A stretch of DNA of 58,883 nucleotides, counting the filler. It is 7 parts of 7 records of this genome, joined end to end, with 100 filler letters (N's around TTAATTAATTAA, not from the genome) between each part and the next. Parts side by side here need not be neighbours in the genome. Positions count along the whole stretch, not along the records: positions 32,035 to 39,131 come from SRR31156797_64280; 6 more parts are not named here. The stretch is one strand, 5' to 3'. The notes below the pieces were generated by a model. That model was not told where the DNA came from and did not search any database. It saw nothing but the letters and a program-made list of their open reading frames with translations. This document shows, piece after piece, positions 12,495 to 45,516 of this stretch. Every line of letters begins with the position of its first letter. Position 1 is the stretch's first letter. The position numbers were made by a program, and so were the translations under genes.

Positions 12495-12594
12495 NNNNNN
12501 NNNNNNNNNNNNNNNNNNNNNNNNNNNNNNNNNNNNNNTTAATTAATTAANNNNNNNNNNNNNNNNNNNNNNNNNNNNNNNNNNNNNNNNNNNN
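12495..12594. other. Artificial contig spacer
   Basis: N-run, TTAATTAATTAA (stops in all six frames), N-run; 100 nt. Confidence 0.97.
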
Positions 12595-19852: not shown

Positions 19853-19952
19853 NNNNNNNNNNNNNNNNNNNNNNNNNNNNNNNNNNNNNNNNNNNNTTAA
19901 TTAATTAANNNNNNNNNNNNNNNNNNNNNNNNNNNNNNNNNNNNNNNNNNNN
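19853..19952. other. Artificial contig spacer
   Basis: Same N/TTAATTAATTAA/N spacer. Confidence 0.97.
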
Positions 19953-20905
19953 GTGCCCGTCACCCAGGCCCGGCCGGAAATTGAAGGGATAACGGCTTCC
20001 ACATCTCCCACCCTGGCCAAGGATTCAATCCGGCAGTGAAATCGGGAGCCGATCACAGATTCCCCGATATAATGGTCACCGACCTTGAGCTGCCCCCGCC
20101 TGGCCAGTACCGCCATTCTGGCCGAACACCCGGTTCCCGTGGGGGACCGGTCCAGCTTTCCCGGCTGGATGGAAACGGCATTCCGTCCCTTGAGGATGCC
20201 CTTTTCCGCCACCAGGGGGGCGGCGATCTGACAGAATGATATATGATCCCAGTCCGGGTTTTCAGGATGAACAAATCCAAGCTGCTCGGTGGCGGCATTG
20301 GTTATTTTTATGCCTGCTTCGGCCATCTCCCTGGCCTCGTCCGGTCTCACCTCAAAGCCCAGTTCCACAGCATCCGCAATGACGAAGGAATCCCCTCCGT
20401 ATGCCGTATCCACCGTCAGGGTCCCCATTCCCTCCACCTCCAGGGGAACATCCAGTTTATGGACAAAGGACGGGACATTGTGAACGGTCATTCTTTTCAC
20501 CTTCCCGTCTTTGCAGTCGGCAACGGCCCGGATCAGCCCTCCCGGGGCTTCCAGGGTGAGAATGGTTCGGGGTTCTTCCATGGGCAGGATACCGGCTTCC
20601 AGCAATACCGTTGATACGCAGATGCTGTTGGACCCGGACATGGGCGGGGTATCTTCCGGCTCCATGATGATCCACCCCATCTGGGCGTCGGGATGTTTGG
20701 GGGGAACCAGAAGGTTGACATGGCGGAATACCCCGCCTCTGGGTTCGTTGAGCATGAACTGCCTGAGGGTCTGGTCTTTGGCAATCCACCGGGATTGTTC
20801 CCATAGGGTCTCTCCCGGAGGCGGTGCAACCCCGCCCACAATGACATCCCCGACTTCCCCTTCTGCATGGCAGCTGACCGTATGAATGATTTTTGATGAC
20901 CGCAT
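19953..20905 (-). CDS. Proline racemase superfamily protein, Ser/Thr type (probable hydroxyproline dehydratase), 3' truncated
   Basis: [19 protein letters not shown] in place of [12 protein letters not shown] in place of DRSPCGTG. Confidence 0.88.
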
Positions 20906-26701: not shown

Positions 26702-26801
26702 NNNNNNNNNNNNNNNNNNNNNNNNNNNNNNNNNNNNNNNNNNNNTTAATTAATTAANNNNNNNNNNNNNNNNNNNNNNNNNNNNNNNNNNNNNNNNNNN
26801 N
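26702..26801. other. Artificial contig spacer
   Basis: Same N/TTAATTAATTAA/N spacer. Confidence 0.97.
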
Positions 26802-31934: not shown

Positions 31935-32034
31935 NNNNNNNNNNNNNNNNNNNNNNNNNNNNNNNNNNNNNNNNNNNNTTAATTAATTAANNNNNNNNNN
32001 NNNNNNNNNNNNNNNNNNNNNNNNNNNNNNNNNN
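31935..32034. other. Artificial contig spacer
   Basis: Same N/TTAATTAATTAA/N spacer. Confidence 0.97.
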
Positions 32035-32157
32035 CCCCATTTTTCTTTCACCACCATCAGACATTTCAGTTTCACTGCTCAAATATATTAACATCATTAT
32101 ATTAATTGGTTATATCTTGTTTGGTGGATTTTTTGTAAAGCCGCGAAATAATCCGGG
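32035..32157 (-). mobile_element. Left end of an IS1380-like element cut by the contig break
   Basis: 32035-32064 is nearly identical to the transposase start at 35318-35348 (ATG.CTGATGGTGGTGAAAG); terminal CCCGGATTAT resembles CCTGAATTAT. Confidence 0.65.
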
Positions 32158-32181
32158 TTAAAGATTCAAACCACGCGGGGA

Positions 32182-32694
32182 TCACCCCGATTTTATAATT
32201 CGTCGTGCGGTAATATATTTCTTTCTATAATAGCCCTTGTCCAGTCGTTGCACTTCCACGCGTTTCCCCGATCTGGGAGCGTGAATGAACTTGCCGCCTC
32301 CCGTATATATGCCTACATGGTAACTGCCGTAGTATGACACTTTAAAAAATACCAGATCTCCCGGTCTCAGCTTCTTTTTGGGAACATATAGGCCTGTTTT
32401 CATCTGGTCTTTAGCTCTGCGAGGCAGTTTGTACCCGTACCTTTTGTAAACATAAGATGTAAAGCCGCTACAGTCAAAACCCTTCGGACTGCTGCCTCCG
32501 AACCTGTAGGGCACGCCGATATAAGACTTAGCCGTATAAACGACTTTTTGGCCGCTAGTCGCCTTTTTTACGGCCGGTTTTGTAGTGGATTTTACCTTGG
32601 GGGGAGCGACTCTGACCTTACTGACGCTGCATCCTTGACAACAGAAAAAGGCTGCGGTCAGCATCATGATAAATGTAATAAAAACTTTTTTCAT
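32182..32694 (-). CDS. NlpC/P60 (C40) cell-wall peptidase, probable lipoprotein
   Basis: PYRFGG...GFDCSGF, PGDLVFF, HVGIY, FIHAP; signal peptide ending QGC. Confidence 0.93.
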   Translation of the reverse strand: MKKVFITFIMMLTAAFFCCQGCSVSKVRVAPPKVKSTTKPAVKKATSGQKVVYTAKSYIGVPYRFGGSSPKGFDCSGFTSYVYKRYGYKLPRRAKDQMKTGLYVPKKKLRPGDLVFFKVSYYGSYHVGIYTGGGKFIHAPRSGKRVEVQRLDKGYYRKKYITARRIIKSG

Positions 32695-33129
32695 AAGCGA
32701 TTCAATCGGCAATTCAAATAGTAATTTTAAGTTAACAATTAATCATTATCTTGTATATTTACAATCTTAATATACAGTATGTAGTATCTATTTAAATTAC
32801 AATAATTCCAATTACATAAACTGGATAATATATTATCAAATTAACGTTAATTTAGCAAACTTTAATTGAATTTAGGTGCAATATGCAGTGTATTATTTGG
32901 CTGTTTTGAAGAGCTTTTTATATGCTAAACGGCAGAAAATAGGCTGGATAAATGTTATTAATATTGCGGATAATCTGATTTATAAAGCACGAGCGCCCTG
33001 CTCAAGAAGCAGTGCGCCCGTGTTTCGAAATCATGAAAACAGGTTTAATCTTGAATCGTGCACCCGATTGATTAACGATTAAACGATTAATAATTAACTG
33101 GAAATACCCTGGTAGGTGCACAAAACATA

Positions 33130-33308
33130 GGCAGATAAGGATAAATCGCGACCCGGGCGCCGACTCAGGGGCCAAGACCATAGGCGGGATGGGGATGGTT
33201 ACAATCCCGCCTTACTTATAAGCAATATGGGATTGGCATTAAAGCGATAAATCCCAGGGGGTTTGGGGGACTGGTCCCAGTATTACCCACTCGAAATAGC
33301 GAAGAACC
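33130..33308. mobile_element. Orphan IS end, ISL3-like
   Basis: Ends in TTACCCACTCGAAATAGCGAAGAACC (GGTTCTTCGC on minus) followed by an A-rich flank; internal hairpin 33182-33212; no transposase; left boundary approximate. Confidence 0.45.
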
Positions 33309-33351
33309 TAAAAAGAAAACGCAAAATACATTATTCGGAATCGCAATTCAC

Positions 33352-34812
33352 CTACCTCAGCGAATCTAAAAAACATCCACTAGCACTATCTCCTCCTACG
33401 TAATCCACTCCATAAATGGAAGTAGGTATTGAATCTTCTAACCAATGTATGGACCCTCCATTTTTAATTTCGAGATCACCGTTGATCTTTAGATCCACCT
33501 CCAAATGCAAAGGGTCACCCACCATCCAATCCGTTGGGAGGTAAGCGGTTGAACCGGTTACATACATCATAATATCATCCTCCCACGTACTGGGCGGGTT
33601 AAAGCTATGACCATGTTCTTTGTCCCACCCATAGATCGTCGTACCATCGCTATCCCAGATGTAGTGTTGGAATACATGGGCGTGACCGGTAAAAATCGCC
33701 TTAATTTTCTTATGATGGTCTCGGATCGTCTTAATGTATAGTTCTCTCATAGTTTTGATTTGTACATTGTTACAAGCAACTGGTATACCTTTTTCGGTTA
33801 TTTCACGTATCGGAGAAACATGCCAGAACAAAATAGCCGTTCTCCCTGTCACAGAAGCTAAAAAATTATCAAGTCTTAGAACTTGTTGCCAATTGAAACA
33901 CACGCAACTGCCTTGATCTCCAGTAAGAGTGGTATATCCACTATCCATCATATAAAAGCTCCACCCATTTTTTATAATTTTTGTTTTTGGTATTCTTTCA
34001 TCCGGATATTCCGCATAAGTGTCAACCTTGTGGAAGGAATTAGGGGATTTAGCATGCTTATCGAATATACCGATTGCGTGATCCCTCCATATGTAGGACT
34101 TTTTCTTTGCCCACTTATAGTTTCTAATGTCGTGATTACCTAGCACCATGTGATGTTCAACGGTTGCATGGAAGGAGTCACGGACATACCTGAAGAATTG
34201 ACAAGCCATATCATAACAACCCGAAATTTCGGTCCCCTCTTTACTAAGATACAGGTCCTCGATAAAATCCCCTAGGCCAAAAATGAAATGATTTGTATCT
34301 CGCGAATTTTTACCTACAGCTTTCATCCTTGTAATGTTGTCGCGTATCCGTTCTTCACTGGTACAATTATGGGCCTTCCTAGAGGGGGGGATATAACCTG
34401 GGCAACAGATGTGAGTGTCGGCATACACAGCAAAACTCACAGCTCCTACTGTAACGAAGTTGGCTGCCTCACTCATCGTTTCTGTTCCGGAGTGATAGAC
34501 CACCTCAAGGCGGTGTGATCCGTAGTTCAATTTGCCGGCGTCGTAGTAGAGGGAGAATTGACCGCTTTCGTTTTTCCCTTCAGAAACTGGATTACCATCG
34601 ATGAAGAACTCGACATAATCGATTTCATCTATTTGGTCATGGTTAACAAATTGGTCATGGTTAACAGAAACACGAAATTCACCGTGAACGACCGCTCCAT
34701 CCAACTGCAACGCTGATGATGATTTCAGAAGCGTTTTGTAGGTAATTCCTGCCCAAGAAATTGATCCTGTTAGAAAGAGTATCAGTAGGTTTACGATTGT
34801 TATTAGCTTCAT
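33352..34812 (-). CDS. Secreted calcineurin-like metallophosphoesterase with N-terminal Ig-like domain
   Basis: Signal peptide from ATG 34812; VEFFIDG Ig-like strand; DTH, GDFIED, GNHD, H, GHAH motifs; C-terminal GGDSASGCFLDSLR. Confidence 0.8.
   Translation of the reverse strand: MKLITIVNLLILFLTGSISWAGITYKTLLKSSSALQLDGAVVHGEFRVSVNHDQFVNHDQIDEIDYVEFFIDGNPVSEGKNESGQFSLYYDAGKLNYGSHRLEVVYHSGTETMSEAANFVTVGAVSFAVYADTHICCPGYIPPSRKAHNCTSEERIRDNITRMKAVGKNSRDTNHFIFGLGDFIEDLYLSKEGTEISGCYDMACQFFRYVRDSFHATVEHHMVLGNHDIRNYKWAKKKSYIWRDHAIGIFDKHAKSPNSFHKVDTYAEYPDERIPKTKIIKNGWSFYMMDSGYTTLTGDQGSCVCFNWQQVLRLDNFLASVTGRTAILFWHVSPIREITEKGIPVACNNVQIKTMRELYIKTIRDHHKKIKAIFTGHAHVFQHYIWDSDGTTIYGWDKEHGHSFNPPSTWEDDIMMYVTGSTAYLPTDWMVGDPLHLEVDLKINGDLEIKNGGSIHWLEDSIPTSIYGVDYVGGDSASGCFLDSLR
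34633..34668. repeat. In-frame 18-bp tandem duplication
   Basis: TTGGTCATGGTTAACA(AA/GA) x2, encoding VNHDQF-VNHDQI. Confidence 0.85.
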
Positions 34813-34863
34813 GCTTCCCTCCTCTTTTGAAGTCAACGACACAACTACCACTTCGGGTTTAGT

Positions 34864-35442
34864 CTCGAATTATGCGGCAAGCTCCGCAATTTCTTTGTTG
34901 CAAGTCCTTTGGGCCCGATTTTAGCCCGTTGAACGGGTCTAAATCCGGAGCGAGAGGTCTGATTCAATCCGCCAAGAGGCGATTTCTCGCCAAATTCTCT
35001 GAAAATTTTATGTTTCTCCAACTCTCGGACATGGTCATCCATCGGTATTCACTCGGTCAATCTAAAACCTGCTCGTCAGCCATGACCGAACACCGCTTGG
35101 TAGTGATGCCGAAGCGGAAAGGCAGAAGCAACGTGCACCCACCAATATCGGCTATGGTAGGAGACACGGGATGCGACCTTGACAACCCTGCGGATCAGCC
35201 ATTCCACCGACCGTTTGACCTCTTCTCCCGCCATGTAGAATTCACGCAGCAGGTGGAGCAGGTTGTAGGCCAATAGCCACATCTTGAGCCGGGCCCGGTT
35301 GAAATCCGGCCTCAAAGCCCCATTTTTCCTTTCACCACCATCAGGCATCCCAAACTCACCGCCGCAATGTATTTTAATAATTTTATCAGGTGGTTACACG
35401 CGTTTGAACCTATATTTGGGGAATTCTGCCGCATAATTCAGG
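34864..35442 (-). mobile_element. Internally deleted IS1380-family element (MITE-like, about 580 bp)
   Basis: Imperfect 16-bp terminal IRs CTCGAATTATGCGGCA (34864) and TGCCGCATAATTCAGG (35427-35442), enclosing a transposase remnant. Confidence 0.75.
35076..35348 (-). pseudogene. IS1380-family transposase remnant (N-terminus fused to C-terminus)
   Basis: GERKNGALRPDFNR joined directly to NRARL..LLAYNLL...VASRV; catalytic core absent; 90 aa. Confidence 0.75.
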
Positions 35443-35443
35443 T

Positions 35444-36535
35444 TTAAATTAATCCTCGCTCAATCCTTATTCGATTGACAAGTTCCGGATGATCCGCCGG
35501 CCCTGTATCTTCAAATCTACGAACGATGCTGATTGCGTTTGTGGGGCATACTCCCGCGCATACGCCGCAGCCGATGCACCAATCCATATCCATTTCTATT
35601 TCACCGCCGTTGAGCCGAACCGCTTCCACCGGGCATATTTCCGCGCAAGCCCCGCAGGCAAGGCATCCGTCGAAATCGGTCTCGCGGATAAAATAGACGG
35701 CCATTAAAACATCCCGTGGAATTTTCCTTCTTTTTATTATGCCCACGTTCCAGCAATAGTGGCCGCAGCAGTTGCAGGTGTGCTTGGTTTCGCCCTGGGT
35801 GTTGTCCACCATGTGCACCAGGCCTTCCCGCTCGCATTCTCCCATAATATGCGCCGTCTCATCCCTGGAAACAGCCCTGGCCAATCCCCGGCTTATGACG
35901 AATTCGGCCATTTCATCATATTTGAAACAGACTTCCAGGCTGTGGGTGCAATCCGTGCGGCCGAGTATCCGGGCCGACATTCTGCAGGGGCAATGGGCCA
36001 GGGCGATTTTTTCAGCCCTGTTCACAATGGCCAGTATTTCCTCGTGAGGCAGGACGCCTTGCTTGGGGACTTCAATTTTCGCCCCTACCGGGCTGTATTT
36101 AAAAGTCTTGGTCGGCGACCCGCCATAAACTTCTCTTGTGACCGGCACGGTAAAATATTTCAGTACCAGACCGGCCATTTTGGCGGCGGTTTCATCTGTG
36201 CGGCCATGCCAAAAAAAAGCCTGGGGCATGCCGTATCCGACCTGGTGCAAGGCATAACCCTTTTCGCCCGAAGGCAGCCGGGTTGAATAAATCATGTTTT
36301 TATCGGCTGCGGATTCAAGGGCGGCTTCGAGCTCATTGTAAGGAAGAGAGGTTCTTTTGGCAGCACGGTCAAGCCCGGCCGCTTCCAACGGGGCCAGGTC
36401 ATTGGGTATGGCCAGTACGGCCTCGGCTTCGGCCGGTGTGAACATTGCCTTTAACAAGTCGATCAAAGCTTCACTGAAAGGGTAGCCCATGACCAGGCTT
36501 TCCAAATGCCGGGCTAAACGCTGGTAGACTTCCAC
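35444..36535 (-). CDS. 4Fe-4S dicluster protein with N-terminal HTH-like and Cys-rich domains
   Basis: CPCR, CNCCGHYC, CLACGACAEICP, CIGCGVCAGVCP; GGAG RBS before GTG. Confidence 0.88.
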   Translation of the reverse strand: MEVYQRLARHLESLVMGYPFSEALIDLLKAMFTPAEAEAVLAIPNDLAPLEAAGLDRAAKRTSLPYNELEAALESAADKNMIYSTRLPSGEKGYALHQVGYGMPQAFFWHGRTDETAAKMAGLVLKYFTVPVTREVYGGSPTKTFKYSPVGAKIEVPKQGVLPHEEILAIVNRAEKIALAHCPCRMSARILGRTDCTHSLEVCFKYDEMAEFVISRGLARAVSRDETAHIMGECEREGLVHMVDNTQGETKHTCNCCGHYCWNVGIIKRRKIPRDVLMAVYFIRETDFDGCLACGACAEICPVEAVRLNGGEIEMDMDWCIGCGVCAGVCPTNAISIVRRFEDTGPADHPELVNRIRIERGLI

Positions 36536-36720
36536 AATATACTCCTTAAAATTACCGGCCGCCGAGATTCCTGACAGATAGTAAAACTCGCTTTAAGATG
36601 GTTTCGAACAGATTGGCCATATCCAGCGAACGCGGTTTAATAATAATCGGATAAAGGGATAATATCATTTTTGCTCACCCAGTCAAAATAACTTTAGAGC
36701 AAATAAATTTGGACGCCCAA

Positions 36721-36757
36721 ATAAATGATCCACGCCCAAAGGACGTGGATCATTTAT
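36721..36757 (-). terminator. Hairpin terminator after selenoprotein gene
   Basis: Perfect 14-bp stem ATAAATGATCCACG/CGTGGATCATTTAT. Confidence 0.7.
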
Positions 36758-36774
36758 ACCGGCCCGCAAATATG

Positions 36775-37032
36775 TTACTGAATCAAGCCTTGTAAATGTT
36801 CGGCCATTTTATCTTCAGAAAGAGCGATTTCATTGGAAACTTGCTGCTCGTTTACAAAGACCGCTGTTGAGGCCCTTATTTTATATGACATTGCTTCCAT
36901 TGAGTCCGTCGTAAACATCTGAACATTGAGGTTGTCGCCGAACTTTTCTTTCATTTTTTCAGCCACGCCTATGGCTTGTTTGCAAGACATTCAGCCGGGG
37001 TTGCCGCTGTGAAACAATTTGATTTCGACCAT
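36775..37032 (-). CDS. Small thioredoxin-like selenoprotein (UxxC), 85 aa
   Basis: AAGGAG RBS, ATG 37032, MVEIKLFHSGNPG-TGA(36993-36991)-MSCKQ...; in-frame TGA gives a U-M-S-C motif; SECIS-like hairpin follows. Confidence 0.8.
36961..36976 (-). promoter_or_regulatory. Candidate bacterial SECIS element
   Basis: AGCCAT-AGGC-GTGGCT starting 14 nt after the TGA; G at second loop position. Confidence 0.65.
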
Positions 37033-37288
37033 ATTTCTTTCTCCTTTCAAGGGTTGGTCTTTAACCTCTATTTATTATTACATCGGTTTTATAACTACGC
37101 AAGCAATTCACCGAAGGCTCTGCGGCATGATCATTTAATCGCCTTTTCTTAAGAGAAGCCATTTACTGCTCTTTCTTTCCAAAGCTATTGACTTGTGTTG
37201 ATAGGCCTATTCTCATACAATAGCGTGTATTGAAAAGAGGCCTTTTATAATTTCACCTTGATACGGTTCCGGCAAAAGGGGGCGCTGT

Positions 37289-38299
37289 ATGTCGATTCGA
37301 ATCCTGTTTAATTTCATCCGCAAATCGCCGCTAGGATTAATGTTAAAAATAAACAGATCCGTAAACGAATTTTACAGGGCTGCGTTCGTATCTTCAGCCA
37401 TGTCCTCGGGCATCCTTGATGCATTGTCCGACGGCCCGACCAGTATCCGTGACATAGCCCGCACACTTGATTTCAATAACAATCTGGAAGGATTGGAAGC
37501 ATGGCTCGAGCTTGGAGTCGGACTTGGAGAGTTGAAAAAAGTTCCCGAAGGGTACCGGCTCAAAGGCGCTCTTTCCAGGAGCCTGGCCCGCGAATCCAAT
37601 GATACATGGAAAGCCTATTTCCAGGCCCGCGTGGAAATCTTTTATGATTATGTACTTAAAACGCCTGCTGTCTTAAAACAAGGTCAGGCCTTTACCCTAA
37701 GCGATTCTTACGCGGAGCTTTTCGCCAGATCGTCAAAAACGGTTGAACCCGTTCTACTGGATGTAGTGGAACGGATTACTCCTCCACGGGGTGAATGCCG
37801 ACTGTTGGAAGTTGGATGCGGGTCCGGGATATATATAAAACGGGCTTGCGAGCTCAATCCCGATTTAATGGCAACGGGCATCGAACTTCAAAAATCGGCG
37901 GCGGACCTGGCCCGACAAAATATAAAAAACTGGGTTCTTGACGGCAGGGTTGAAATAGAACTGGTCGACGTTAGAGATTTCGAATGTGCCCAGCCCTATG
38001 ACCTGGTCACCTTTCACAATCTTGTATATTACTTCCCATTGAATGAAAGAGTGGAATTGTTCACACGCTTATCCGGGTTTCTCAAGCCCGGCGGCGAATT
38101 GGTCGTCACAACCCTTTGCCGTAAAAACGATCCATCAATACAATCAATGCATTTGTGGGCTTCCATGACTCGGGGATGCGGCCCTGTTCCCGAGCCGGGC
38201 CAGATTTGTGAGCAATTAAAAACCTCGGGGTTCGGTGAAGTGCGTCAAGAAAGTCTTATGCCGGGATTTTTTATGTTCACGGCTCGAAAAAGCGCCTGA
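37289..38299 (+). CDS. Class I SAM-dependent methyltransferase with N-terminal wHTH/dimerisation domain
   Basis: LLEVGCGSG, GIE, DVR, YDLV, LKPGG. Confidence 0.88.
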   Translation: MSIRILFNFIRKSPLGLMLKINRSVNEFYRAAFVSSAMSSGILDALSDGPTSIRDIARTLDFNNNLEGLEAWLELGVGLGELKKVPEGYRLKGALSRSLARESNDTWKAYFQARVEIFYDYVLKTPAVLKQGQAFTLSDSYAELFARSSKTVEPVLLDVVERITPPRGECRLLEVGCGSGIYIKRACELNPDLMATGIELQKSAADLARQNIKNWVLDGRVEIELVDVRDFECAQPYDLVTFHNLVYYFPLNERVELFTRLSGFLKPGGELVVTTLCRKNDPSIQSMHLWASMTRGCGPVPEPGQICEQLKTSGFGEVRQESLMPGFFMFTARKSA

Positions 38300-38500
38300 A
38301 ATTCACTGCCCTCTTGCTATCCCGGGCCTGAATGGATATAAGGTTCCTTATGGCGGCGTCGCCGGAAGGCAATTAATAACCGGCCGCCGCCCTGATAATT
38401 TATTCCTTGAAACCCAAAGGTGTTTTTATATAAATTGGAACCTGTCAGCAGTTGAATTCAAACTACCGACTCATGCAATTGCAGATTGAGGAGATAAAAT

Positions 38501-39131
38501 ATGCGTAGCGACGCCATGAAAAAAGGATTGGAAAAAGCGCCCCACAGATCGTTGTTCAAAGCCATGGGGTACACGGATGAAGAAATCGCACGACCCATCA
38601 TAGGAGTGGCCAACTCAAAAAATGAGATTATCCCCGGCCATGTCAATCTGGATAAAATTGCCGAAGCAGTAAAAGCCGGCATCCGTATGGCGGGCGGCAC
38701 GCCGATAGAATTTTCCACAATTGGTGTTTGCGACGGTATCGCCATGAACCACGAGGGTATGAAGTATTCTCTGGCCAGCCGAGAATTGATCGCCGATTCC
38801 GTTGAAGTTATGGCCCGGGCCCACCCTTTTGACGGCCTGGTTCTCATACCTAACTGCGATAAAATCACCCCGGGTATGTTGATGGCGGCCCTGAGACTCA
38901 ATATACCGGCCATTGCCGTTTCAGGCGGACCAATGGAAACCGGGCAGTTGGATGGCAGGGAGCTGGACCTGATTTCCGTATTCGAGGGCGTGGGCAAGGT
39001 AAAAGCCAAAAAGATTACGGAAAAAGAACTCGCCCGAATTGAAGATGCAGCCTGTCCCGGATGCGGATCATGTTCGGGCATGTTTACGGCCAATTCAATG
39101 AATTGTCTGACGGAAGCCATTGGACTCGGAC
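38501..39131 (+). CDS. ilvD: Dihydroxy-acid dehydratase (3' truncated)
   Basis: [49 protein letters not shown]. Confidence 0.96.
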
Positions 39132-39231
39132 NNNNNNNNNNNNNNNNNNNNNNNNNNNNNNNNNNNNNNNNNNNNTTAATTAATTAANNNNNNNNNNNNN
39201 NNNNNNNNNNNNNNNNNNNNNNNNNNNNNNN
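39132..39231. other. Artificial contig spacer
   Basis: Same N/TTAATTAATTAA/N spacer. Confidence 0.97.
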
Positions 39232-40250: not shown

Positions 40251-41237
40251 ATGAAAACACGGATTTTCGGGAATACGGGGCGTTCGGTCTCTGAAGTCGG
40301 TCTGGGAACCTGGCAGCTCGGCGGAGCCGACTGGGGAAATGTCGGTGAAAAGGAAGCCCTCGGCATCCTTCATACGGCGGCGGACAGGGGGATAACCTTC
40401 ATCGACACGTCCGATGTCTACGGCCCTGAAATCAGTGAACGGTTTATCGGCAAGTTCTTAAAGGAAAGGAACGACGGGCTCTTTATCGCCACCAAACTCG
40501 GCAGATTCCCCGACCCCGGCTGGCCTGAAAACTTCACGCCTTCAGCCATGGAAGCCCATACTGACGCCTCCCTCAAGCGCCTGGGAGTCGAGGCTCTGGA
40601 TCTCACCCAGCTCCACTGCATCCCCACCGATGTGATGGCCCGGGGGGAGGTTTTTGAGACACTGAGAAATCTTCAGAAAAAGGGGAAGATCCTCCATTTC
40701 GGCGCCAGTGTTGAATCGATGGAAGAGGCCCTTATCTGTCTGGAAGAGGAGGGGCTCACCTCCCTGCAGATCATTTTCAATATATTTCGACAGAAACCGA
40801 TTGATGTGCTTTTTGAAAAAGCCCGGGACAAGGGGGTCGGAATCATCGCCCGGGTCCCTCTGGCCAGCGGACTCCTTTCAGGGAAGATGAAAAAGGACAA
40901 AAAATTCGCGAAAAATGACCACCGGCTCTACAACCGGAACGGTGAAGCCTTCAACGCCGGAGAAACCTTTGCCGGCCTCCCCTTTGAAGCCGGTGTGGAT
41001 TTAGCCGAAGAGTTGAAAGGACTCCTGCCCCCGGAGCTTCCGATGGCACAGGCCGCCCTGCGCTGGATCCTCGATCATGAAGCGGTCTCCGTCGTCATCC
41101 CCGGAGCCAGCCGTCCGGAGCAGATTGAATCCAACGCCGCGGCCTCGGAACTCTCCCCCCTCTCCGGGGAACTCCACGGGCAGCTGAAAGAGCTCTACCT
41201 GACGAAAGTCCACGGCCTTATACGGGGGGTCTATTAA
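40251..41237 (+). CDS. Aldo/keto reductase
   Basis: GLGTWQLG, DTSDVYG, ATK, SLKRL, QLH, PLASGLL, IPGA; AGGAGG RBS before ATG 40251. Confidence 0.93.
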   Translation: MKTRIFGNTGRSVSEVGLGTWQLGGADWGNVGEKEALGILHTAADRGITFIDTSDVYGPEISERFIGKFLKERNDGLFIATKLGRFPDPGWPENFTPSAMEAHTDASLKRLGVEALDLTQLHCIPTDVMARGEVFETLRNLQKKGKILHFGASVESMEEALICLEEEGLTSLQIIFNIFRQKPIDVLFEKARDKGVGIIARVPLASGLLSGKMKKDKKFAKNDHRLYNRNGEAFNAGETFAGLPFEAGVDLAEELKGLLPPELPMAQAALRWILDHEAVSVVIPGASRPEQIESNAAASELSPLSGELHGQLKELYLTKVHGLIRGVY

Positions 41238-42232
41238 ACGGGAATATCCGCAGTCTTCACCCTCTTCTTGCGGATACAGATAAAAGAATCTTCCGTCCAC
41301 CGGCGGTAGGCACAGTTGCGGCAGCTGCGGAGATCGTCACTGATCATCTCCTCGGGAACATCGGGTTTAAAATGGGAACAGGCCCTATCATCTCTGCCGC
41401 CTCGGCCCCGGCCGTGCATCTTTCCAGTCCCGATGGAAATATCCTCTCGGGAGGTTCCGGAGACACCGGCCCGGTCATCCCCGAACTTCCGCATCTCGTG
41501 CTTTTCCATGGTCACCCAGCTCCCCTTTTCCGTTCCGGGAAGGGCAAGAAGCACCGGTTCTCCTTCACAGAGAACAGGTTTTGCCTTCCAGATAATGGAC
41601 ACCCGGGCTTCCGGGGGAAGGGGCTTGAGGTCAGCCGTACAGACAGAGGTAATGAGTTTCTCTTTCAACAGGGTTTCAACTGAAAATGACATCCCCGGCT
41701 CCAGGTGGTCAATCCCCCCCTTCACCTCACCGTCGTTGCCTTCAAACCGGAGCCCCACACCTGCGAGAGCTCCAATCACCCCGTCTCCGGTTCCGCCGGT
41801 CTCTGTCAGAAAAACGCCGGTCTCCCCCGCCAGGTCATAGGCCATCCTCTTATTCAGAACCTCTCTCTTGGCGGCACTCCCGAAACATCCGAGTCTTTTG
41901 CCGATGTCCCCTTCGGAGAGGACACGAATATCGGCAATGCAGATCCCCGGGTCCGATCCTTCGGCCATCTCCTCCCGGAGGTAACACACAAGGGTCTCCT
42001 TCAATTCCGAAAGATAATCCGCCTCCACCCGGGCGGTAAAACACATGGCGCTGTTGTGGGATGTATAGGGAACATCCTCATGAATATAAAGCTGGTGTCG
42101 GGTGATAAAATCGCATCTTCCCCAGCCCTTCTCCTCGATAAGGGAGGCCATTTCCGAGGCAATAGCCCCGGTCCCCCGGGATTCAAGATTGTCCGTATCA
42201 TCGATGCAGATAAGCAGATCCAATTTGTTCAT
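41234..42232 (-). CDS. TiaS N-terminal-like (DDTD) protein with C-terminal Cys-rich module
   Basis: CIDDTD, RHQL, PYTSHNSAMC, SDPG, AKRE, GVIGALAG; tail C..F.PDVPEE...SCRNCAYRRWT...FIC. Confidence 0.6.
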   Translation of the reverse strand: MNKLDLLICIDDTDNLESRGTGAIASEMASLIEEKGWGRCDFITRHQLYIHEDVPYTSHNSAMCFTARVEADYLSELKETLVCYLREEMAEGSDPGICIADIRVLSEGDIGKRLGCFGSAAKREVLNKRMAYDLAGETGVFLTETGGTGDGVIGALAGVGLRFEGNDGEVKGGIDHLEPGMSFSVETLLKEKLITSVCTADLKPLPPEARVSIIWKAKPVLCEGEPVLLALPGTEKGSWVTMEKHEMRKFGDDRAGVSGTSREDISIGTGKMHGRGRGGRDDRACSHFKPDVPEEMISDDLRSCRNCAYRRWTEDSFICIRKKRVKTADIPV

Positions 42233-45416: not shown

Positions 45417-45516
45417 NNNNNNNNNNNNNNNNNNNNNNNNNNNNNNNNNNNNNNNNNNNNTTAATTAATTAANNNNNNNNNNNNNNNNNNNNNNNNNNNN
45501 NNNNNNNNNNNNNNNN
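45417..45516. other. Artificial contig spacer
   Basis: Same N/TTAATTAATTAA/N spacer. Confidence 0.97.

Follow-up and report, generated by a model that had tools for sequence, protein, structure and literature searches.

The tsoX gene described here is carried on the minus strand of a window of 58,883 nt (the whole stretch of DNA that was analysed, filler letters included), which consists of seven contigs joined by N-linkers; other genes in the window may therefore derive from other organisms. The gene is located on the piece 32035-39131. Each of the six joints (12495-12594, 19853-19952, 26702-26801, 31935-32034, 39132-39231 and 45417-45516) is made up of a 12-base spacer between two 44-N runs, and the spacer is the same AT palindrome in the two joints that were read. 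The features of the locus are listed in Table 1.

The reading frame extends from an ATG at 37032-37030 to a TAA at 36777-36775 and is interrupted by one in-frame TGA. The standard ORF list contains only a 71-aa ORF (36775-36990) at this place, which begins at a second ATG (36990) directly 3' of the TGA, and no RBS is present in the 24 nt 5' of this ORF. The preliminary description had claimed that the ORF track missed a longer gene starting at ATG 37032 behind AAGGAG, and this was confirmed. Read through the TGA, the frame contains the motif HSGNPG-U-MSC (residues 8-17), i.e. U14-x-x-C17.

Table 1. Features at the tsoX locus (positions along the window)
Feature	Position	Strand	Basis
tsoX CDS, 85 aa, predicted Sec at residue 14	36775..37032	-	Read-through translation, NF045809 score, predicted fold
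RBS AAGGAG, 8 nt 5' of ATG	37041..37046	-	Sequence; RBS-like word in homologues
In-frame TGA, codon 14, predicted Sec codon (U of UxxC)	36991..36993	-	Conservation; Cys homologue; thioredoxin alignment
Cys17, predicted resolving Cys of UxxC	36982..36984	-	Alignment A6; aligns to Cys35 of thioredoxin
bSECIS upper hairpin, 6 bp, 4-nt loop AGGC	36961..36976	-	Pair conservation, geometry
Thr56, at the thioredoxin cis-proline position (Pro76 of E. coli Trx)	36865..36867	-	HMMER alignment to 4hu7, 1nho
Strong hairpin 3' of the stop, probable terminator, 14 perfect pairs	36721..36757	-	Fold computation
Sigma-70-like site, 10 of 12, extended -10	36659..36686	-	Consensus match only
363-aa protein, C-terminal 4Fe-4S motifs	35444..36535	-	Profile scans
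Class I SAM methyltransferase, 336 aa, divergent	37289..38299	+	Profile scans

To gauge chance, TGA codons followed by at least 60 open codons were counted in the window (188), and three of these, tsoX included, had an in-frame upstream RBS-ATG. One of the two other RBS-ATG-TGA read-throughs was scanned and matched no NCBIfam family; the third case overlaps the start of a 332-aa ORF, which was scanned as called. This ORF (41234-42232, minus strand) belongs to the contig that follows in the window, where its neighbours are an acidic protein of the clostripain family and a NapH-like ferredoxin; it has an N-terminal half that is weakly TiaS-like / methanogenesis marker 11 and a Cys-rich C-terminus. 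On another contig, 19901-20905 (minus strand) encodes a trans-3-hydroxy-L-proline dehydratase (NCBIfam 593, cut-off 550).

A contig of depth 49 covers the tsoX stretch without any difference; it may be the source itself, and so is not independent confirmation. A further contig, about 95% identical and obtained in a second study, covers the Fe-S gene and tsoX and is gap-free within the tsoX frame; among the 40 of its 133 differences that were listed none covers the TGA, and the codon is not directly confirmed by this contig.

Family membership and predicted fold

The 85-aa product matched NCBIfam NF045809.1, named 'HSGNPxU motif (seleno)protein TsoX', with 123.3 bits (cut-off 52, E 3.3e-36); residues 2-81 were aligned to profile positions 1-80 of 82, and the motif of the family name is present in the product. 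Four further NCBIfam matches were all far under their cut-offs. The 71-aa ORF alone scored 95.9 bits on NF045809. Local Pfam yielded only a sub-threshold Thioredoxin_3 match, and the precomputed annotation of a 99%-identical protein gives PF26315 without naming it. The family, left unnamed in the preliminary description, is therefore TsoX: the gene belongs to an already catalogued family and represents neither a new family nor a new mechanism. The copy in the window is divergent (42-57% identical to the fetched loci).

In the available part of a 2026 review (PMC13188914), TsoX is tabulated as a UxxC selenoprotein (example WP_337661155.1), is credited to Haft and Tolstoy 2025 (mSystems 10:e0141724) and is given no function; the Tso operon is described there as three selenoprotein genes with adjacent, otherwise unrelated ones. 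Literature searches on TsoX/Tso terms returned this review as the only relevant paper, and the BSepDB main text does not contain 'Tso'.

Relatives were drawn from genomes and metagenomes (at least 100 metagenome matches were confirmed and the best 80 kept). The comparison comprised 91 sequences, i.e. the window and 90 loci, L002 being omitted as a duplicate of L001 and L003 as a thioredoxin below the cut-off. Seven candidates came from viral contigs, none of which was confirmed as a TsoX relative. Among 7999 candidates scored for fused forms, one longer match was obtained (P0051), whose additional N-terminal part appears to result from reading through the DNA upstream; with this number of candidates, the evidence on fused forms is weak.

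The AlphaFold2 model, computed with a 29-sequence alignment, reached a pLDDT of 96.5, with the elements E2-8, H15-34, E35-41, H46-49, E56-60, H67-70 and H73-84. Foldseek matches were thioredoxins throughout (TM 0.6-0.74), as were those of a wide structural search (best Z 11.9, rmsd 1.7, 81 residues aligned). The closest solved sequence was 1nho (E 3.1e-05 with the family profile). In the model, four strands form a sheet accompanied by helices, and helix 1 opens with U14-x-x-C17, which places the protein in the thioredoxin fold class, in agreement with the thioredoxin/glutaredoxin-like fold that had been proposed from the sequence. No signal-like N-terminus is present and the sequence opens with strand 1, which suggests a cytoplasmic location.

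In the HMMER alignment to 4hu7 and 1nho, U14, C17 and T56 correspond to C32, C35 and P76 of E. coli thioredoxin. The proline was said to be missing, and indeed Thr56 is found where canonical thioredoxins and glutaredoxins have the cis-proline before strand 3. In 72 distinct homologues listed, the site is Thr in 65, Pro in two, Ala in one and Ser in one (three unassigned), so that on sequence comparison the loss of cis-Pro is a family-wide TsoX trait. According to the part of PMC2757866 that was available, cis-Pro is more conserved than CxxC, probably contributes to the substrate site and may keep CxxC from binding metals. At most, the protein would work like a thioredoxin, and it was not classed as a canonical thioredoxin or glutaredoxin.

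Codon 14 and the hairpin downstream

Codon 14 is TGA in 90/90 related loci listed (89 by script, L086 by eye); these loci are related and partly redundant, with 69 distinct 45-mers, the window counted. Position 14 was outside the search patterns, and its conservation was therefore not built in. An ATG lies exactly 13 codons 5' of the TGA in 66/72 distinct homologues listed, and, of the 70 distinct homologues with enough upstream DNA, 60 have an RBS-like word ahead of the corresponding start. In alignment A6 (30 sequences), F7, G10 and P12, all 5' of the TGA, are invariant, and His8 is at least 90% conserved. Cys17 is invariant as well, in part as an effect of selection, since a Cys there was demanded by the pattern used on the metagenomes. 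Residue 15 is frequently other than Met.

Homologues with other residues at position 14 were also found. P0008 has Cys there and scores 110.2 bits on NF045809, above the cut-off. Six other database homologues have Trp, probably because gene callers translated TGA as Trp. P0010 has Ser at position 14 and has lost Cys17. In the protein library, 33 of 39 matches begin at residue 15 or later, and in the alignment displayed 24 of the 39 begin at query position 15-27 or beyond, as expected when gene callers stop at the TGA.

TsoX was found in six GTDB-type genomes among the 301 searched; SelB was over the cut-off in 5/5 tested and SelA in 5/5 tested. The window itself gave zero tRNA and zero Rfam matches.

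Some relatives carry further irregularities. A second in-frame TGA occurs at the Gly10 codon, four codons 5' of the Sec codon, in L041 (6475-6726) and L042, which would be either a broken gene or a double-Sec variant. Apparently damaged tsoX copies include L064 (7001-7246, in-frame TAA), L092 (frameshift or truncation) and L006 (1371-1628, without a start Met).

A SECIS-like hairpin beginning 14 nt after the TGA had been pointed out, and it was borne out by the conservation of its pairs. The hairpin (36976-36961) carries GG at the second and third loop positions, and 20 nt separate the loop from the UGA. The bSECIS criteria given in the available part of PMC13188914 are a loop of 3-9 nt with G in position 1-2, lying 16-37 nt from the UGA, an upper stem of 4-16 bp and an energy of -7.5 kcal/mol or below. 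All the geometric ones agree with this hairpin (stem of 6 bp, loop of 4 nt with G at its position 2, spacing of 20 nt); its energy, -6.5 kcal/mol for the bare 16 nt and -7.6 kcal/mol with flanks, is borderline against the threshold of -7.5. In three of four longer windows it is the preferred fold, with pair probabilities of 0.67-0.98, and in the remaining one it is outcompeted (0.02); in a 64-nt window another fold wins (z -1.33, 23/200 shuffles equally stable). Because other folds win in some windows, energy alone does not single the hairpin out, but conservation does.

Over 57 distinct sequences, 99.4% of 342 cells were paired, and 0/500 shuffles were as high (descent ignored), with slid registers pairing only 18-51%. 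Six cells were altered on both sides, and the count of pairs with a double change was reached in 33/500 shuffles. Since codon positions 1 and 2 determine four of the six pairs, the two third-position pairs were tested: both were kept in 68/69 distinct sequences listed, against 6.0 +/- 2.3 (at most 16 in any of 2000 draws) when synonymous codons were redrawn from the same genes, a null that ignores common descent. G was present in loop position 1-2 in 69/69 distinct sequences. Codons within the SECIS hardly vary (Ala GCT 66, Ile ATA 66, Val GTA 60 and Ala GCC 66, of 71), whereas Pro12 and Gly32 use all four codons. The hairpin of the window contains two compensatory changes, A-U for G-C and C-G for U-A. 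Comparison thus shows a conserved element with the sequence features of a bacterial SECIS 3' of UGA 14.

The in-frame UGA is conserved in homologues and aligned to Cys elsewhere (P0008, thioredoxins), and the apparent stop early in the gene almost certainly encodes selenocysteine. The reading of the TGA as Sec in an 85-aa UxxC protein, already put forward in the preliminary description, is therefore upheld by the homologues, in which the TGA (or a Cys) at position 14 and the 13 upstream codons are conserved. From the sequence comparisons, TsoX identity together with Sec recoding is regarded as virtually certain. The gene call is corrected in consequence (the real protein would be 85 aa with selenocysteine, not 71 aa), and comparative support is added for the TsoX SECIS, in the form of frozen synonymous codons and compensatory pairs.

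Surroundings of tsoX and the Tso operon

Downstream of tsoX, a 14-bp terminator had been claimed, and the hairpin there is a probable terminator. The 14 perfect pairs are present (arms 36757-36744 / 36734-36721, extendable to 17 pairs) and the 51-nt region folds at -31.7 kcal/mol, but a terminator scanner found none in its output and did not list the hairpin, and no clean U-tract follows the full stem. Another contig (12 kb) of run X1 has a match to the hairpin (36719-36751) with a single difference, so that the hairpin may be a repeated palindromic element. The sigma-70-like site is probably the Fe-S gene's own promoter. As the terminator-like hairpin is followed by a promoter-like site facing the Fe-S gene, tsoX is probably transcribed alone, as a stand-alone, monocistronic gene.

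Just past the Fe-S gene lies the C-terminal remnant of a DDE_Tnp_1_4 transposase (35076-35348, minus strand); from 35439 on, the second-study contig no longer resembles the window, and an insertion scar specific to the strain is suggested. Further along the same contig, 33352-34851 (minus strand) encodes a 499-aa protein with a signal-like N-terminus and Ig-like and metallophosphoesterase domains. On the other side, a cut ilvD is found beyond the methyltransferase. Between tsoX and the contig ends there are 2.1 kb on the upstream side and 4.7 kb on the downstream side.

Both adjacent genes were considered as partners of TsoX. A full-length Fe-S homologue was present in one of the related loci compared, about 5.5 kb away, and the methyltransferase had no tblastn match in these loci. 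Close homologues of the Fe-S protein (11/301 genomes, E up to 1e-60) and of the methyltransferase (10/301, E up to 1e-40) were each found in 0/6 TsoX genomes; these co-occurrence counts are weak, the genomes being incomplete and the numbers small. A link of TsoX to either gene was rejected as unsupported by the locus and genome comparisons, and the Fe-S gene, with its own promoter-like site, is probably not a partner.

TsoR, TsoA and TsoB gave no tblastn match in the window, with queries from loci typed by NCBIfam, and the Tso families were absent among the contig's other ORFs in the profile scan, which agrees with the stand-alone position ascribed to the gene beforehand. Among the 53 loci with at least 1200 nt upstream (33 shorter loci were left out), TsoA was found in 8/53 and a TsoR-like match in 12/53; with 45/53 lacking a TsoA match, a tsoX outside the Tso operon is the commoner state among the sampled loci. 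The order TsoR-TsoA-TsoX, then TsoB or a DsrE-like selenoprotein, occurs in nine loci (L005, L007, L008, L009, L025, L059, L080, L083 and L084). Directly 3' of tsoX in 10 loci (L008:1764-2072, L007 and others), a 103-aa DsrE-family protein has an in-frame TGA in UxxC, with a Pfam DsrE match and no NCBIfam match at 1e-6; DsrE-like selenoproteins are listed as known in the part of PMC13188914 available.

Neighbours were surveyed in 86 partly redundant loci, with genes called by a simple script. Each of the following was present in 3-10/86 loci: ArsR regulators, a fatty-acid-hydroxylase-like protein, a thioesterase, a metallo-beta-lactamase fold, an ABC-2 transporter, a flavoprotein-rhodanese fusion (of the NAD(P)H flavoprotein type), a flavodiiron protein, SAM methyltransferases, a chromate transporter, Mrp/NifX-like proteins, a hybrid cluster protein and DUF364. 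No reductase gene was consistently linked to tsoX in the loci surveyed.

Possible function and relation to known systems

The most likely job of TsoX, which we favour with modest confidence by analogy with its fold and closest solved relatives (1nho and other small thioredoxins), is that of a small cytoplasmic Sec/Cys redox carrier. On sequence comparison, translation starts at ATG 37032 and the product is an 85-aa protein of thioredoxin fold; as in established Sec biology, SelB-GTP-Sec-tRNA would bind the hairpin and insert Sec at UGA 14. By thioredoxin chemistry, Sec14 would be the nucleophile and Cys17 would resolve the mixed intermediate to a selenenylsulfide, after which a flavoprotein or other cellular reductant would regenerate TsoX. 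Given the altered cis-Pro loop, TsoX probably acts on persulfides, on metal-thiolates or on a single dedicated partner, in preference to general protein disulfides; the genomic context may point to sulfur, metal or oxidative-stress handling. The recurrent flavoprotein-rhodanese fusion, flavodiiron protein, hybrid cluster protein and DsrE-like selenoprotein were counted in favour of a redox carrier; the absent cis-Pro and the lack of a consistently linked reductase gene were counted against it.

The same cis-Pro site opens another explanation, in which TsoX is a selenoprotein for the binding and hand-over of a metal, a metalloid or Fe-S, with Sec14 and Cys17, perhaps also His8, as ligands and Thr replacing a metal-excluding cis-Pro. 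Such a role is possible, if doubtful. It is consistent with the prevalence of Thr in the family, with the conservation of His8, with neighbours such as the ArsR/SmtB regulator TsoR, an Mrp/NUBPL ATPase with a NifX-like domain, the chromate transporter and DUF364, and with a weak match to the MTH895/ArsE family (27.1 bits, cut-off 62). However, each metal-related neighbour occurs in few of the loci, the nearest structures are ordinary thioredoxins, and the two members that kept Pro (L001 and L011) suggest drift from an ordinary thioredoxin. Its stronger form appears unlikely: TsoX would be a selenolate-ligating metal or Fe-S carrier and not a disulfide reductase, a portable module with the family-wide change of cis-Pro to Thr, mostly outside the Tso operon and beside metal-sensing, sulfur-relay and cluster-assembly genes. 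If it were true, a first test of the family, whose function is absent from the available part of PMC13188914, could conveniently use this compact stand-alone copy. The Thr-for-cis-Pro exchange and the mostly non-operon copies were likewise not found in that part, and may already be in print.

Two further explanations were weighed. TsoX might be a dedicated subunit of the Tso pathway (TsoR-TsoA-TsoX-TsoB), orphaned here, with its partners elsewhere or lost: the nine operon-like loci and the nearby contig ends accord with this, but separation from the operon is commoner, and the intact CDS, RBS and SECIS with compensatory changes argue for continued selection, which makes it improbable. Less credible still, and already largely refuted, is a genuine stop at codon 14 or a TGA created by sequencing error, with translation yielding the 71-aa ORF or no product at all. 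That ORF has its own ATG and a family score above the cut-off, and Trp stands at position 14 in some database homologues; yet homologues just 42-57% identical have kept the hairpin, the RBS and the TGA with the 13 codons before it, residue 15 is often other than Met, and the depth-49 contig agrees (if it is not the source itself, in which case it adds nothing independent).

As a small cytoplasmic redox carrier or otherwise, the product can be set beside four known systems. It shares with TsoX (NF045809) the whole-length match above the cut-off, HSGNPxU, UxxC, the TGA at codon 14, a length of about 85 aa, Thr at the cis-Pro site and the same SECIS hairpin; it differs in its sequence divergence, in the absence of a TsoR-TsoA-TsoX-TsoB operon on the contig, and in two hairpin pairs, A-U and C-G in place of the G-C and U-A of most members. 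With the small archaeal-type thioredoxins (1nho 'probable thioredoxin', TIGR00411 MJ0307 and TIGR00412 MTH895/ArsE) it has in common the minimal thioredoxin fold of about 85 aa, an xxC motif where helix 1 begins and the match to 1nho; TIGR00411 (30.7 bits, cut-off 92.75) is below its cut-off, as is TIGR00412, and 1nho has CxxC and Pro whereas TsoX has UxxC, Thr and a two-residue insertion before the motif. The fold core is also that of E. coli thioredoxin 1 and relatives (2trx, 4hu7; TM about 0.7, about 20% identity), but TsoX is without the N-terminal strand and helix and without cis-Pro, and has Sec for Cys. NF047660, the HUIPC motif thioredoxin-like (seleno)protein tabulated in the same part of PMC13188914, is likewise a small UxxC thioredoxin-like selenoprotein, with another motif, on which the window product scores 17.8 bits (cut-off 105).
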